Of a stretch of DNA of 64,000 nt, positions 5,900 through 39,327 are shown piece after piece. The DNA lies in contig OZ024740.1 in NCBI GenBank assembly GCA_964016885.1, positions 264,802,001 to 264,866,000 on the forward strand, in the 5' to 3' direction. Origin of the DNA: Eledone cirrhosa (Eukaryota). Each line of letters opens with the position of its first letter. Within the stretch, counting starts at the first letter, position 1. The position numbers were made by a program, and so were the translations under genes. A model generated the notes under the pieces. The model was not told where the DNA came from and did no database searches. It worked only from the letters and a program-made list of their open reading frames with translations.

Positions 5900-6265
5900 A
5901 AGTAGAGGCGGTATTTAATTTGTTGGAAGTCCAACAAATATAAATGTTTATAACTGATTTAGAGCACTCAACATTTTACTCGAGTAAATATTCAATGATA
6001 TTAAATAAATGGAGACTATATTTATAAAACCATATTTATTTTATTATATATATTTCAACGGTACCAAGACACATTGGTACGCTTTCATTAGATAACATAC
6101 AAAGTTTGTCTTATAAATAGAGACATAACCATGAAAATCATTCCTTATCGGTTGTAAATTAACTGGATAGTCAGTGAATTTCCACCCGATAATGTATGAT
6201 TTCCATGGGTATGTCTCTATTTATAAGAAAAAACTTTGTATTTTATCTGATGAGAGCGTACCAAT
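5900..6265 (-). mobile_element. Short fold-back non-autonomous PLE-like element (family A) within (TA)n
   Basis: Imperfect palindrome 6073-6265; homologous to 38733-39327; flanked by (TA)n. Confidence 0.75.
6037..6099 (-). ncRNA. Minimal type I hammerhead ribozyme-like motif
   Basis: tatgttat-CTAATGA-aagc gtaccaa..ttggtac cgtt-GAAA-tatata-TA-ataaaata; the opposite arm has canonical CTGATGA at 6247. Confidence 0.7.
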
Positions 6266-6329
6266 ATATATATATATATATATATATATAAATTACACAA
6301 TAATCAAGGATATGTTCAAATCATTTTAT

Positions 6330-6376
6330 TGCTGACAATCGTTTCTTCAAAACTTTCGTAGGAGATCATCGGAGCA
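6330..6376 (-). ncRNA. Hammerhead-like motif at the 3' end of another PLE remnant (about 6290-6860)
   Basis: tgct-CCGATGA-...-GAAA-cgattg-TC-agca; stem I pairs, the core has one substitution and stem II is weak. Confidence 0.5.
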
Positions 6377-6863
6377 TTAGCAATGTTTGTACATATAATT
6401 AACCTCCTATTCAACTGAACAATCATATAGATACATGGATATAGATGTTGTCAACAACAGTTTCGTATTTACATGGTAGAATGGATGTGGCATATATTAC
6501 AAGAGAAATGCACAATAATTCAAATTAAAAAGGCACAGAGTGGAATGCATGCGACAGATATTACAAGGGAATAGTATAATAATTAAAGAGGCATTAAGGA
6601 AGAATGTTACTCGTAAAACGAGGACACTAGCAGTACATATGCAAGGGTGTAGAGAGTGCCAATGCGTTAGGAATTTATAGGAAGGAAATAAGCAATGGTA
6701 TTATGCATATATAATTAGTGTATGGCAAAGGTATCACATAAAATAACACAGGTTTACAAGAATATCAAATAAATATGTTGAGAGTATCAAAAAGTTAATA
6801 ATAAATTACTGAACTTCCTGTTCATAGTTATTTATAGTGTATACATAACTATAAATAATATCA

Positions 6864-8035
6864 TTCTAGGGCTAGATCGTATAACGGACATAAAAACCAT
6901 GTGACCTCTGCGCCGCTGAGGCTCTGGAAATACTCTAGGCCACAGACCACATCTTAAACAAAAAATCTGAGGCAGTTTCGGCTTGTAAACATAAATTGCA
7001 CAAAACTTTCCTGTATACAGCCCCACATTATACCCTAACGGATAGTACGATCTATACGCGGATATGTTACGTCTTGATGTGGTAGTTAAGTATATGTTAT
7101 GTTTATACCATTACTTATTTGCATAGGTAAGTATATATTACATGTATGTTTTGTGAAGGTACGTATACTTTCTCGGATGTATATTTGGTTGTATATGTTA
7201 TGGCGTATATATTATATATTCTGGTAATATACTTTTGGTTATGTGTATACGTGAGTTTTGAGTCTGTGTGTATATGCGGGTTCGTACGTATGTAGGGTGA
7301 GTGTATATGTGTAATTCGTGTTTTGGTTGACGTTGGTCTCCGAACATATGTGTATTTACATGTAGGTATGTGTGTGCGCTTGTTATATAAGTATTTATTT
7401 ATTTATATACGTTTATTTTATTATTTGTATACACGCACACACATACATATTTATATGTGCGTGTATTTGTATACCTATAGCGAGTGTTTTCGCGTATGCT
7501 TGTTTATGTACGTATATGGATGCGTGTATGTATTTATTTAATTTCAATTACTTTTGTATTTTATTTACTTTATTCTTAACTCTGAAGCCGAGAATCATTC
7601 GGTTTCCTAGTTAGAATTTTAGTCTACGACTTCAGTTATACCATTTACGTGGTTTTGTCTTTGCGTGCAATTGTTCTCTACGCTCCACATATGACGTATT
7701 ATCTTCGTTTTTTCCGTTCATTGCCAGAGAACGTCTCTATGAACCACCTAAGAGAATATTAGTCGACGACTTTTTTTATACCATAAATGTGGTTTTGTCT
7801 ATGCGTGTATTTGTTTTTCAACGTTCCAAATAATGACGTATTATATTCGTTTTTTCCCGTTCTTTGCCAGGGAACGTTTCCACGAACCAAAGTATCGTCT
7901 TCCTGTCTTCCTCCGGTTGCAACGTTTTTTGAAATATTCACTTCTGCGTTCACAGATTGATTTGTTTGTAAGAACCCGTTAAGGGTGAAAGCAGCTATTC
8001 TTTGCTTAAACTTTAATCTGTTATTTTAATAAATA
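6864..8035 (+). mobile_element. 3' fragment of the Naiad family seen at 55685-59445 (end of GIY-YIG plus 3' UTR)
   Basis: Collinear similarity to about 58165-59445, including the roughly 150-bp 3' UTR duplication; ends in (TA)n. Confidence 0.9.
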
Positions 8036-8054
8036 AATATATATATATATATGT

Positions 8055-36094: not shown

Positions 36095-36392
36095 TGGTTT
36101 CCTTCTTTAGACCGTGGCCATGCTGGGGCATTGGTTTGAAGTCCATCATATTACGATCTTCGTAATTTTTTCAAAATGTGGCTACATATTTTGTCGATCT
36201 ATTTTACTTGAATAGCTAAGTTATGGGACACACACGGAACTACGTACACACTCATGTGTATATATGTGTGTATATACATGTGCCACGAGCTGCCGCAGTT
36301 TTCGTGTACACAATCTCACATTGGTCAATATGCGGCTCTTGTTGAAGATACTTGCCTAAGTTGCTGCACATTGTGACTGAACCCAAAAGACT
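36095..36392 (-). mobile_element. Degraded second SINE family
   Basis: gtggccatgctggggca, gctaagttatgggac and gaagatacttgcctaag..gactgaaccca (reverse B-box like) resemble a cephalopod SINE as recalled; not verified. Confidence 0.45.
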
Positions 36393-36952
36393 GGATTCTT
36401 ATGGAAAATAATCTGAAGAAATTTATGTTTACCATCGTCATTTTATTAAGAAGAAATAGATATTTTTAAATAGATGTAATGCATAGACCTTTTACTGACT
36501 GATTCTAATCAGATGGCGTTACTTTCTATACTAATTTAGTATATGTCGCAAGCAAGATTTAACCTCAGGAATTCTTAACGATATTCAGATAATAATATCC
36601 GATACCATTTATACGAACTTTATTATGATATCTAGTATTGTTTTCTTGTCCCTATAATACTTTTGTATCTGTGAAGCAGTATTTTAATTTGAAGAGGAGA
36701 GGATGGAGGAAATAACTTGCGATCATTTAGTGTAATGGTGAATTTGACGCAGAAAGGGATTTGATATGACTCCATAATATATATATATGAAAAATGTCTT
36801 ATTGTTTTTCATGCTTTCCATGTTTTATATGCATATATATATATATATATATATATATATGTGTGTGTGTGTATGTATGTGTATATATATATATATATAT
36901 ATATATATATATATATATATATATATATATATATATATATATATATATATAT

Positions 36953-38641
36953 ATTAGGGTAAACATTGATGCAATTCAATTCAAGCACTCAACCTAATTT
37001 TTCCACATAGGAGTGACGGAGTAATTATCGAATAAGGAAAAGCGAAGTAGTTTCAGATGTTCAAGTCCTTTAATAATAATGCTGTGATATATATTTCAAT
37101 GACGACACTGTGTGCGAGTGTCGTGTCATCATCAGACAGCTTGCTACATAATAAGGTTGTTTCCGAGGCAATCCAAATTGAATCGACATGGGAACGGATG
37201 AAGTTCGTGCTTTAGGGTTTTTCATCCGTTCCCTTGTGAGTACCAATTCACCCCCACCGGTCTGCGCAAGCGCATGTCCGAAGGTAGTTGAACATTAGTC
37301 ACCGCAGATTTCAACGAAATTCGCTGTCAGTTCACGCTCTCAGCCAAAACAATAGCCCACCTATGCCCTACCAATGTCTACTGCTACCCATCACGACTGT
37401 GGCAGTCAGCCGAAAGCCAGAGGGGATGGGATGGTGTTAGTTTGTATAGGTCATAATACTACCTTTCACTAAGCGTTGACAGCAAGACTGACCATCAACT
37501 CATAAGGGAAAATAAACTTAATTCTAGGTACTATGGTTTTACATTGTAAGTTAAGAGTGAGAGCTGGAAATAAAAATTAAAAATTAAAATCCTAAATCAA
37601 ATATCAGAGATTATAAATTAAACAATTAACAATTCAAAAATTCTAAATTCAAAAATGTTTCAAGTGATAATTCGGATTGAGTAAAGATATAGATGGAAGT
37701 GAGTAAATAATATGGAGAGAGATGTTTAAGTAATAAGTTCTGAGAGGGATTCTAGTGTCCCAGTTACTCTATCCACATATTGAACGACAGTGCCGTACAT
37801 TATAACGGAGGGCAAACTACATGGTTCAAGGCATTAGTCAATCCGCTACACGGTCATAATTTCCATCACATGGAACACAATCAAAGAAAAACAGACATAA
37901 AGTACACAAAAGAAAAGAAAAGAACAGAACCAATAGTGAATGAATGCAAAAACACAGAGTACATATATGCAAAATGATCCATATTATTGTCCATCTGTCC
38001 ATGTATAGATTGAATTGAGGGGGCTTCCGTTCAAATGCGATTTGGTGCAGGAAAATAGGGGTTTATCGTATTTTTTGTTTCCGCGCATTTATCCTACCAA
38101 AAGTTACTATTACGCCCATCCAGTGTCAGGGGTTTTCATCCCCATGGCAGAGGGAATTTCCGGGGTAGCTCTTGGTTGGTTCCTCTCTTCTCCACCATAT
38201 CGGTTACATCATAGAGCGCTCAACTAATCGGAGCTAAATTATTAGGGTAAACATTGATGCAATTCAATTCAAGCACTCAACGTACTTTTTCCACATAGGA
38301 GTGACGGAGTAAATATCGAATAAGGAAAAGCGAAGTAGTTTCAGATGTTCATGTCCTTTAATAATAATGCTGCGATATATATTTCAATGACGACACTGGC
38401 CACACTGTTCTGTGGGCGAGTGTCGTGTCATGATCAGACAGCTTGCTACATAATAAGGTTGTTTCCGAGGCAATCCAAATTGAATCGACATGGGAACGGA
38501 TGAAGTTCGTGCTTTTGGGTTTTTCATCCGTTCCCTTGTGAGTACCAATTCACCCCCGATTGCCTGTGTCGTCATTGAAATATATATCACAGCATTATTA
38601 TTAATGGACTAGAACATCTGAAACTACTTCGCTTTTCCTTA
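36953..38641 (-). mobile_element. Non-coding PLE/retrozyme-like element with two direct pseudo-LTRs and a terminal inverted stub
   Basis: 36953-37255 matches 38240-38557; 38565-38641 is an inverted copy of about 38320-38397; (TA)n on both sides; no convincing ORF. Confidence 0.85.
37081..37140 (-). ncRNA. Minimal type I hammerhead ribozyme motif
   Basis: gctgt-CTGATGA-tgac acgacact..agtgtcgt catt-GAAA-tatata-TC-acagc; second copy at 38369-38442 with core CTGATCA. Confidence 0.8.
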
Positions 38642-38732
38642 TATATATATATATATATATATATATATATATATATATATATATATATATATATATATAT
38701 ATATATGTGTGTGTGTGTGTGTGTGTGTGTGT

Positions 38733-39327
38733 GGAGAAGTTCTATTTAAATTGTTGGGATACAACAAGCAAATATTTTTATAACTGATATAAAGCACTCA
38801 ACAAATAATTGGAGTAAAAATACGATATTAACAAATGGAAACTATATTTATAAAACCATTTTTCATATATATATATATATATTATGGAGTCGTATCAAAT
38901 CCCTTTCTGCGTCAAATTCAGCATTACACTAAATGATCGCAAGTTATTTCCTCCATACTCTCCTCTTCAAATTAAAATACTTGTTCAGAGATGCTTCACA
39001 CATATTTATTTCATTATACATATTTCAAGGACACCAAGTTAAATTATGGTGTGCTTTCATCAGATAAAATATAATATAGAGCAGTTTTATAAATAAATAT
39101 TGACATACCCTTAAAGAATGCCACCATTACTGTTGGAAGCTCCCGGATAGTCAAACTATCCGGGAGCTTCCAACAGTAATGGTCGCATTCTTTAAGGGTA
39201 TGTCAATATTTATTTATAAAACTGCTCTATATTATATTTTATCTGATAAAAGCACACCATAATTTAACTCGGTGTCCTTTAAATATGTATAATGAAATAA
39301 ATATAGTTTCCATTTCTTAATATCGTA
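38733..39327 (-). mobile_element. Fold-back element (family A), interrupted at about 38865-39000
   Basis: Near-perfect palindrome 39002-39304 with loop TCAAA; 38733-38860 is homologous to 5900-6033. Confidence 0.8.
39007..39071 (-). ncRNA. Minimal type I hammerhead ribozyme motif
   Basis: tattttat-CTGATGA-aagc acacca..tggtgt cctt-GAAA-tatgta-TA-atgaaata; all core positions canonical and an 8-bp stem I. Confidence 0.85.

Follow-up and report, generated by a model that had tools for sequence, protein, structure and literature searches.

A 64,000-nucleotide stretch of the Eledone cirrhosa genome (assembly GCA_964016885.1, contig OZ024740.1, forward-strand positions 264,802,001 to 264,866,000; hereafter the window) contains several short elements that share a motif resembling a hammerhead ribozyme, with a C opposite a C in stem II. 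What is this motif, what carries it and what keeps the mismatch? We find that this hammerhead-ribozyme-shaped motif occurs in ~73,000 copies at the ends of Penelope-like elements (PLEs) throughout the genome.

Motif copies in the window

The initial annotation described four motifs with one layout, and these are present on the minus strand at 6091 (AAGC..CGTT), 9038 (GGAC..CTCT), 37135 (TGAC..CATT) and 39063 (AAGC..CCTT). In each, stem I encloses a paired upper helix, GAAA, a six-base loop III and UH. The upper helices pair in all four, as claimed, although the gtactg/cagtac helix given there is a composite of two arms. The inverted repeats at 39002-39304 (97%), 8933-9263 (88%) and 6075-6263 (81%) are real, but the 37081 element, also described as palindromic, is not a fold-back. 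The elements at 6073 and 39002, assigned to one family, are related subfamilies with tails 80% identical but different upper helices. The initial annotation did not list two C·U-family motifs (5520-5602+ and 2881-2963-) and one C·C motif (16037-16129-). The features are as follows.

2842..5641, plus strand: longer 5'-truncated PLE with inverted duplicate; GIY-YIG end (~4032-4660), 3' UTR and the two C·U-family motifs
5902..6265, minus strand: Hydra-type PLE 3' end inserted as a fold-back; 81% identity between arms, long tail at left, flanked by (TA)n runs
6031..6105, minus strand: hammerhead motif AAGC..CGTT, C·C, decayed core CTAATGA (64 bits)
6233..6265, plus strand: mirror motif, 5' half only, truncated by (TA)n (motif model and sequence)
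8933..9355, no strand assigned: GGAC-family fold-back insertion; arms 8933-9097 and 9099-9263 (88%), center ~60 nt upstream of the core, long tail to ~9355
8974..9052, minus strand: hammerhead motif GGAC..CTCT, C·C, decayed core CTGCTGA (motif model)
9144..9222, plus strand: mirror hammerhead motif, decayed core CTGTTGA, AAAA (motif model)
16037..16129, minus strand: further motif of the same layout, GATC..CATC, C·C, loop TATGTG (31.8 bits)
36955..38243, minus strand: complete unit (1,289 bp) of a non-autonomous family without an ORF
37072..37149, minus strand: hammerhead motif TGAC..CATT, C·C, intact core, lower stem II without Watson-Crick pairs
38243..38557, minus strand: upstream partial tandem copy (pseudo-LTR, 93%), decayed motif CTGATCA at 38360-38451
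38562..38639, plus strand: inverted 5'-truncated piece of the 1,289-bp unit
38743..38875, minus strand: 39002-family long tail; between it and the fold-back lie an inverted copy of 36667-36776 and a (TA)n run
39001..39077, minus strand: hammerhead motif AAGC..CCTT, C·C, intact core (copy included in building the motif model)
39002..39325, no strand assigned: AAGC-ACACC-family fold-back insertion; arms 97%, turnaround 39152-39154
39229..39305, plus strand: mirror motif, decayed core CTGATAA, TAAA (motif model)

The window copies are mostly decayed fossils. Only two of the seven motif copies in the named elements retain an intact core (39063- and 37135-), the others reading CTAATGA (6091-), CTGCTGA (9038-), CTGTTGA/AAAA (9158+), CTGATAA/TAAA (39243+) and CTGATCA (38437-); an eighth copy, at 6247+, is truncated by (TA)n.

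Genome-wide occurrence and model matches

With CUGANGA, GAAA and UH in order, three helices and an open stem I, the layout is that of a type I hammerhead core; these elements are intact in two of the seven window copies and in 77,889 exact matches across the genome (pattern search for the core plus a TRYRYA loop III). Cleavage of the motif by itself is predicted to fall after UH. The C..C pattern has 50,945 exact genome matches and the reversed pattern none, so chance does not account for it. Comparison with Rfam, which the initial annotation had called for, returned no hammerhead family among the 150 of 202 window matches listed, and none at E<=10 when the two intact motifs (39063- and 37135-) were used as queries. 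Nor did any of the 56 PLE hammerheads in Fig. S3 of PMC4209133 match, or any entry of the Hydra/Chlamys hammerhead table in PMC8557442 File S2; the full match to a described PLE hammerhead that would have spoken against a distinct subtype is thus missing from both sets. Compensatory helix changes, together with the lack of an Rfam match, support the proposed conserved subtype with an extended stem II and an internal loop.

Stem pairing and the C·Y break

Across 26-40 families, stems I and II have undergone double changes with pairing kept, and one position of stem II stays unpaired. Alignment cells are paired in 85.5% of cases versus 66% after shuffling (0/500) and 27-48% in slid registers, and the mismatch column (25/54) is unpaired in 25 of 26 families and paired in 2 of 40 in a second set; stem I pairing served as a filter and some family sampling selected for C at 10.4, so these tests lean towards the model. 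In a tree-aware test, covariation, as envisaged in the initial annotation, placed II.6, loop III 2-5, I.1, I.3 and I.4 at the top, but most stem II pairs (II.1, II.2, II.3, II.5, II.7, II.8, II.9 and II.10) were not singly significant. Pairs II.2 and II.3 support a symmetric register of stem II, without an extra base after position 9. The pair at 10.1-11.1 is present in 28 of 40 families and is G-C in 8 of 40, so G10.1-C11.1 is not kept; A-U, G·U or U·U are often found there.

Stem II is interrupted after three pairs by a 1x1 loop. In all four window motifs this loop, at the fourth stem II position, is C opposite C. Genome-wide, 10.4 is C in 74,109 of 77,889 matches (95%), and its partner 11.4 is a pyrimidine in 72,703 of those 74,109 (98%; C 69%, U 29%). 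The C at 10.4 in the annotated C-C mismatch therefore stands, but because the partner is C or U the rule is C·Y rather than C·C. By class, there are 50,945 C·C, 21,758 C·U (23,164 minus 1,406) and 1,406 C·purine matches, with 3,780 lacking C at 10.4; small C·A families exist. Among 62 motifs met by chance in flanks, 57 are C·C or C·U. Loss at 10.4 (4.9%) is twice that at core G8 (about 2.0-2.4%), and the tree-aware test counted seven changes at 10.4 versus four for II.3, the seven partly reflecting non-C singletons that were deliberately included.

The upper helix (10-50 nt), stem I and the neighbors of the mismatch on both sides have all undergone turnover through double changes, with the C retained. 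Stem I ranges from 4 to 12 pairs with no loop common to families, and among 26 families no base is invariant beyond the core, C10.4 and the loop III ends. We tentatively suggest that C·Y is held at the RNA level, most plausibly as a non-canonical, narrow pair by which the element's own protein would recognize stem II. An RNA-RNA contact is a conceivable but doubtful alternative to this role.

Loop III

The initial annotation saw in loop III a mimic of the (TA)n target. This idea is not supported by a family of 12,150 exact matches, in which 29 of 30 sampled copies have TGCGCA, yet (TA)4+ follows 27 of 30. Loop III positions 2 and 5 change together, which indicates a palindrome, and 157 of 171 six-base loops are self-complementary when G·U is allowed, like the palindromic loops of min-HHRs. 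Judged by these sequences, loop III is conserved as a self-complementary palindrome, as a dimer model would have it, rather than as a (TA)n mimic.

Carrier elements

The link to a PLE reverse transcriptase (RT) drawn in the initial annotation is right: ORFs encoding RT and GIY-YIG domains lie upstream of the motif in L069, L061, L064, L071, L074 and L338 and at 4032-4660 of the window, where the truncated PLE at 2842..5641, with its GIY-YIG end and motifs, ties the motif to a PLE protein. In L069, for example, an intact 821-residue ORF with RT and C-terminal GIY-YIG domains precedes the motif by 1.07 kb, and the 5' end carries an inverted copy of 857 bp; L064 and L071 (3.7 and 3.9 kb) are tandems in which an ORF lies between two motifs; L061 has a 566-residue ORF; and in L338, from a third family, 1.2 kb separates the motif from a Hydra-type nuclease upstream. 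Partial tandems, inverted 5'-truncated copies and an optional tail at one end, all PLE hallmarks, are seen here as well. As Pfam matched none of the carrier proteins, their assignment relies on motifs and homologues.

Protein P0001 has DKT, a CxCx5C linker, CxxC and CxH, a C-terminal endonuclease and no CCHH, the features given for the Hydra clade in section 11 of PMC8557442, and the carriers insert into (TA)n, as that clade does. At the RWK position, the residue after RW is T, I or R in P0001, L071 and L064. Identity between P0001 and P0002 is only 55%, yet the motif layout is common to both. From these motifs, and from comparison with curated Hydra RTs by eye, the carriers are assigned to Hydra-type PLEs with the motif at the 3' end (pseudo-LTR). 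For the GGAC family, no protein-coding master was found within the DNA examined.

The 37081 element has no ORF and is a tandem unit of 1.29 kb, with direct repeats at 36955-37255 and 38243-38557 (93%) and an inverted piece of 78 bp (38562-38639). As read from the tabulated loci, the unit start is directly preceded in 27 of 30 by the unit's own 3' end, head to tail, and one near-complete dimer was found; a non-coding head-to-tail unit with a type I motif has the organization of a retrozyme. No protein-coding master was found for this family. The three pairs below the mismatch are U·U, G·U and A·A, which leaves the 37081 element without a Watson-Crick lower stem, and the TGAC subfamily is predicted to misfold over the core; exact matches number 570 for TGAC versus 684 for TGTC.

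Fold-backs and insertion ends

The fold-back shape does not belong to the RNA motif but arises at insertion. In L004, L007, L008 and L009 the two arms have private changes in common, the junction differs between loci, and arm lengths run from ~30 nt to kilobases. The short fold-backs are thus likely by-products of PLE copying: each insertion would newly generate a 5'-truncated copy joined to an inverted duplicate. Truncated copies in inverted orientation, and tails, are known from PLEs (PMC8557442).

The 3' ends of insertions are fixed at two places, about 45-55 and 130-150 nt beyond the cleavage site, and the insertions examined span the uncut site. Their 5' ends accumulate 64-88 nt upstream of the core. 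By family, 12 of 30 lie at -80..-89, 11 of 30 at -58..-66 and 10 of 30 at -69/-70, some insertions being counted by each of their arms, so that the 10 at -69/-70 represent 6 insertions. All three sites begin at C|A; one family has TATAAA 31 nt upstream and the other two lack a TATA box. In 6 of 13 copies that start at the site's A, read by eye, G precedes where the template has C. Fold-backs centered at the pile-up (gap 0-14) number 88 versus 58 in a control twice as wide; at the cleavage site there is no pile-up, with 40 at gap 0-14 versus 174 at gap 15-45. The 5'-end pile-up is probably a transcription start, and the turnaround at 39152-39154, which precedes the core by 88 nt, would mark such a start.

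Relation to known hammerheads and retroelements

The motif does not amount to a new ribozyme class; PLE hammerheads, inverted copies and dimer loops are already known. The min-HHRs of PMC4209133 (Cervera and de la Pena 2014) are also of type I, with the CUGANGA/GAAA/UH core, a long helix II and a very short helix III whose loop is palindromic; they too lie in the terminal repeats of PLEs, occur as thousands of scattered truncated copies and form opposite-strand pairs 100-700 bp apart. Their consensus, however, has an extra base after A9, G10.1-C11.1 and a continuous helix II, whereas the variant here has no extra base and the C·Y break after three pairs, which none of the 56 examples listed there has. 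The Hydra clade of PMC8557442 (Craig et al. 2021) likewise has a C-terminal GIY-YIG, DKT, a CxCx5C linker, CxxC, CxH and no CCHH, (TA)n targets, inverted 5'-truncated copies with tails, and a hammerhead near the 3' end, in some cases with U·U at the stem II base. In the hammerheads listed there, by contrast, stem II is short and unbroken, with 3-7 pairs and loops of 3-10 nt, and the loop III region has 7-8 bases; their elements are described as under 3 kb, whereas ours are 3.7-3.9 kb and include a 3' UTR of 1-2 kb. The curated set contains a single octopus Hydra family, which has a different motif. To judge from its title and the review PMC6765202, the work of Lunse, Weinberg and Breaker (RNA Biol 14:1499; PMC5785218) covers many small PLE-tied variants and dimer cleavage, and may already include the C·Y variant.

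The tail is likewise defined by two RT start sites downstream of the hammerhead in PAc, a Poseidon element of Anolis (Frangieh et al. 2024, PMC11167929), where uncut RNA also serves as template and targets are also AT-rich. PAc belongs to a different PLE clade and its ORF starts inside stem II, whereas here the ORF starts about 220-235 nt past the cleavage site; the PAc data are biochemical and ours genomic. The insertion ends support internal RT initiation on uncut RNA independently, from genome data in another clade, and they point to a promoter start. More broadly, the C·Y variant bears on what hammerheads do in PLEs. About 73,000 copies in dozens of diverged families of one genome, missed by Rfam, amount to a natural mutational scan, and one invariant non-core base provides a sharp test.

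Models of motif function and insertion

We favor, with fair confidence, an explanation in which the motif is the 3'-end motif of Hydra-type PLEs, with a stem II broken by C·Y, and the fold-backs are by-products of insertion into (TA)n. The element's RT would start just downstream of the uncut motif, extend to the transcript's 5' end, which is likely capped, and leave an inverted duplicate in (TA)n. Following PMC4209133 and PMC11167929, the latter reporting internal RT initiation on uncut RNA and protein-assisted cleavage, it is slightly more probable by analogy than the converse that the motif would cleave only slowly, as a dimer through the palindromic loop III or with the element's protein. 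A bolder and rather unlikely extension is that this is a previously undescribed subtype whose C·Y loop is as constrained as the core because the RT-endonuclease reads it, switching between uncut template and cleaved or circular RNA, with short insertions recording the RT starts and the capped start of each family; if true, they would provide the first genome-scale map of PLE reverse transcription.

Other roles for the motif deserve consideration. The C·C loop lies where a canonical stem II ends, and the identity of the C, not merely the mismatch, is kept along with the core across families, as would be expected if the loop made a tertiary contact with stem I or a dimer partner and tuned an active ribozyme in the manner of canonical loop 1-loop 2 contacts. 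This possibility is doubtful, given 26 families without another invariant base beyond those named, the variable stem I with no shared loop, and the finding that no cross-stem pair outranked helix pairs in the tree-aware test, which has low power. It is also rather unlikely that the motif no longer cleaves and is kept only as a folded cis signal, for RT docking or packaging, beside the two RT start sites. Every insertion examined runs across the uncut site, where no class begins, the subfamily with a broken lower stem has spread almost as well as the intact one, and insertion in vitro proceeds without cleavage (PMC11167929). Nevertheless, the core, UH and self-complementary loop III are kept across families no more than 55% identical in protein, as catalysis and dimerization would require, and U·U at 10.1-11.1 is compatible with cleavage (PMC3088659, PMC7229834). 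Inheritance of the C from a recent common ancestor, without constraint, would fit a single clade in one genome, a tree-aware test that did not single out 10.4 and a partial metagenome scan with nothing similar; this account is quite unlikely, as its surroundings were replaced while the C stayed and the carriers differ by 45% or more in protein.

Two further routes would produce the insertions differently from the PLE copying we favor. Two tandem motifs could cleave and the freed unit be ligated into a circle and reverse-transcribed into tandems, above all in the 37081 family, whose head-to-tail loci and near-complete dimer resemble the non-LTR retrozymes of PMC7229834 and bioRxiv 10.64898/2026.07.22.740005, non-coding tandem units with type I hammerheads that are thought to be moved by PLEs. 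We consider this route unlikely. Retrozyme hammerheads are canonical, with contacts between loops 1 and 2, and retrozyme monomers are short and arrayed, whereas the 1.29-kb unit exceeds the reported 51-972 bp, forms partial tandems and has ends that are PLE tails with 5' inversions; no long arrays were seen among the loci examined, read-through of a tandem master gives the same picture, and the 64-88-nt pile-up is left unexplained. Finally, the 40 best-scoring relatives of 39002-39304 are full-length palindromes (91-100%), as if MITE-like DNA elements moved as whole fold-backs, but these relatives were chosen for likeness, and unbiased samples have variable centers and mostly single arms. A fold-back DNA transposon with a fixed unit and fixed junction is largely refuted by the variable centers and differing junctions, and movement of this kind is very improbable indeed: the arms share private mutations, and the ends are asymmetric PLE tails.

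A C.Y mismatch in an abundant hammerhead variant

The motif, a type I hammerhead-shaped element with stem II broken at position II.4 (10.4 opposite 11.4), is a real and very abundant hammerhead variant, with good structural support, carried by Hydra-type Penelope-like elements (PLEs). In the window (35% GC, with many (TA)n tracts, in a 3.0-Gb assembly), six motifs fit a permissive type I descriptor, and R1, our covariance model of the motif, picks up eleven at E<0.001. Both recover the four motifs of the initial annotation, with the tetramers it gave and C opposite C. Its fold-back layout holds for three elements but not for the fourth:

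6073-6265, fold-back
8936-9260, fold-back
39002-39304, fold-back
37081, partial tandem plus a short inverted segment

Of the motif copies in these elements, the core is intact in 39063(-) and 37135(-) alone; five more have core changes and one is cut off. No hammerhead family appears among the Rfam matches listed for the window, and no Rfam hammerhead matches the two intact motifs at E<=10. The C.Y variant (C at 10.4 opposite C or U) is undescribed in the literature text searched; Lunse et al. (PMC5785218) is the likeliest source of a description, and the novelty of the variant is provisional.

Genome-wide, we counted matches in which the core is exact, loop III reads TRYRYA and the cleavage site is UH, with stems unchecked and both fold-back arms counted. 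C at 10.4 faces C at 11.4 in 50,945 matches (control, 0) and a non-C base in 23,164, of which 1,406 are purine; 3,780 matches have non-C at 10.4. These counts put C at 10.4 in 95.1% and a pyrimidine at 11.4 in 98.1%. Among the matches listed, non-C bases at 10.4 are mostly single changes within known families, many at CpG. Loss of the catalytic G8 gives 1,922 matches against 347 in the control (2.0-2.4%). A further 62 motifs, many from one family, were encountered by chance in flanking DNA; 50 have C.C and 7 have C.U. The mismatch rule is C.Y: the C at 10.4 is kept, and its partner is C or U rather than C alone, as in the C-C mismatch first noted.

The genome also holds other hammerhead subtypes with 4-, 6- or 8-base palindromic loop III, often with an extended stem II; one such family has C.U at position 4. 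Six-base loops that are not T...A account for 16,008 pattern matches, compared with 2,669 in the control. Examples of these subtypes in locus flanks:

L013:1809-1867
L038:2350-2408
L071:8045-8144
L072:4119-4220

Covariation of the stems

Covariation was judged by column shuffles, register slides and a tree-aware count in place of R-scape. The loci yielded 205 motifs, 171 with a six-base loop, forming 45 clusters at 80%; the 34 motifs lacking that loop and five families (loop not T-initial, or stem II <22 nt) were dropped before the family pairing and tree-aware tests. Positions II.2, II.3 and II.5-II.9 are paired in 29-38 of 40 families, above column shuffles, II.1 in 28 and II.4 in two. In a 26-row MAFFT alignment, which leaves out 14 of the 40 families, mostly those with long upper helices, 85.5% of cells pair compared with 66% after shuffling, double changes number 111 compared with 40, and 25 of the 26 rows have II.4 unpaired. 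Slides of register pair 27-48%, and placing an extra base after A9, a register rejected here, gives worse pairing than the symmetric one. These pairing counts lean towards the structure, as motifs had been filtered on stem I pairing, C was required in two of the searches, and shuffling takes no account of kinship. In the tree-aware count, loop III 2-5, II.6, I.3, I.1 and I.4 rank in the top 11 of 1,310 other column pairs, and no remaining stem II pair reaches significance by itself; the seven changes at 10.4 are inflated by non-C singletons included on purpose. Taken as a whole the structure is well supported, its individual pairs less so.

The initial annotation likened loop III to the (TA)n target. 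The hexamers are self-complementary in 157 of 171 motifs, including TGCGCA, TACGTA and TGATCA, but the TGCGCA family still inserts into (TA)n (27/30), and we reject target mimicry. Predicted loop III duplexes reach -2 to -10 kcal/mol, and the self-complementary loop corresponds to the dimer palindrome described in PMC4209133 and PMC3088659.

Carrier elements

PLE ORFs sit inside long-spaced motif pairs. The 821-aa protein of locus L069 (P0001) joins an RT to a C-terminal GIY-YIG domain and has DKT, a CxCx5C linker, CxxC and CxH and no CCHH, all marks of the Hydra clade in PMC8557442 (section 11). The protein of L061, from a C.C family, is 55% identical to it; L338 encodes a nuclease of a third family, ~40% identical to its best homologue, and L064 and L071 are motif-ORF-motif tandems. 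Argonauta supplies the sole named RT homologue, which along with assembly size and repeats suggests a cephalopod host. Within the window, a GIY-YIG end is joined to a C.U-family motif at 2842-5641. The 37081 family consists of a 1,289-bp unit that has no ORF; at 27 of 30 loci the start of this unit comes directly after its own end. Neither five translated frames from the window nor two complete proteins gave a Pfam match. Assignment of the carriers to Naiad or Nematis was rejected, as the motifs do not fit.

A protein scan of metagenomes confirmed no relative (0 of 150 stretches). In a pattern scan none of the 118 metagenome stretches listed has both stems, and the covariance model found only four weak matches (22-24 bits) in 100 of them; these metagenome results do not imply absence from other animals. 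Contigs from three unlabelled runs, two from other organisms, cover the motif in pieces, with no ends or joints, and were set aside as evidence of expression.

The window also carries a second, near-full-length Hydra-type PLE, 31% identical to P0001, with a 1.4-kb inverted copy; its 3' end bears a hammerhead-like motif that is short and of another kind, in which U.U occupies the stem II base:

55683-61195, PLE
56360-57280, RT
57270-58349, RT/EN
6866-8032, truncated relative

Fold-backs and transcript ends

Exact matches number 4,499 for the 39002 family, 2,009 for the 8936 family and 12,150 for the main C.U family. Within a locus the two arms carry the same private changes, and from locus to locus the junctions vary, so each fold-back forms at insertion, as the inverted truncated copy known from PLEs (PMC8557442). 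A fixed mobile palindrome, suggested by the best-scoring relatives, is rejected on unbiased samples. In each family the 3' ends fall at two places, ~45-55 and 130-150 nt beyond the cleavage site and followed by (TA)n, which fit the two RT starts of PAc in PMC11167929.

We reject the use of a cleavage product as template: 40 fold-backs close to the site gave an apparent peak, but adjacent gaps are more densely filled (174 across 31 gap values) and short gaps are empty at a control site too. Copies run across the cleavage site, where fold-back centres show no enrichment. The 5' ends pile up at -80 to -89 (12/30), -58 to -66 (11/30) and -69/-70 (10/30, from six insertions), and at -88 there are 88 fold-back centres across 15 gap values, versus 58 across 31 at a control site with a different anchor; the three window fold-backs turn at about -78, -60 and -88. 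All three pile-up sites read C|A, one with TATAAA 31 nt upstream. G precedes the A in 6 of 13 copies starting there (counted by eye; p=0.014, copies not independent), and a copied cap would leave such a G. The Penelope promoter lies within the terminal repeat (PMC2377424). We infer run-off at the transcription start: RT would run off the transcript, and fold-backs, as insertion by-products, would keep a record of where it started and stopped.

Beside the 39002 element, 38883-38992 is a 110-bp inverted duplicate of host DNA 36667-36776 that splits the element from its tail, which suggests a local rearrangement. Short palindromes beside (TA)n at 53469-53575, 53357-53785 and 54631-54817 have no match to R1 and are possibly fold-backs of other PLE ends.

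Function of the mismatch

In the 26-family alignment no partner base outside the core is invariant, and stem I lacks a common loop; both weaken the case for a classical tertiary contact, and we consider a putative RNA contact rather unlikely as the role of C.Y. The same absences, with the need of the PAc hammerhead for its protein (PMC11167929), favour over it a putative mark read by a protein, which we propose tentatively.

Within the 37081 family, the single base by which the TGAC subfamily differs from TGTC costs lower stem II its last Watson-Crick pair and creates a predicted 11-pair misfold over the core. Since TGAC, lacking a Watson-Crick lower stem, spread almost as much as TGTC (570 versus 684 exact matches), cleavage may be dispensable for non-autonomous copies.

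Other repeats in the window

A SINE-like dispersed family of 190-200 bp, with a short tandem run at 370-1000, occupies:

437-1001
8123-8346
11860-12082
40248-40430
41569-41764
44626-44856
52953-53149

From their translations, 28355-31406 and 46061-49246 are presumably two decayed Helitron-like Rep/helicase copies. A tandem of ~250 bp at 21117-21693 contains tRNA matches at 21234-21304 and 21484-21554, both scoring above the Rfam threshold.
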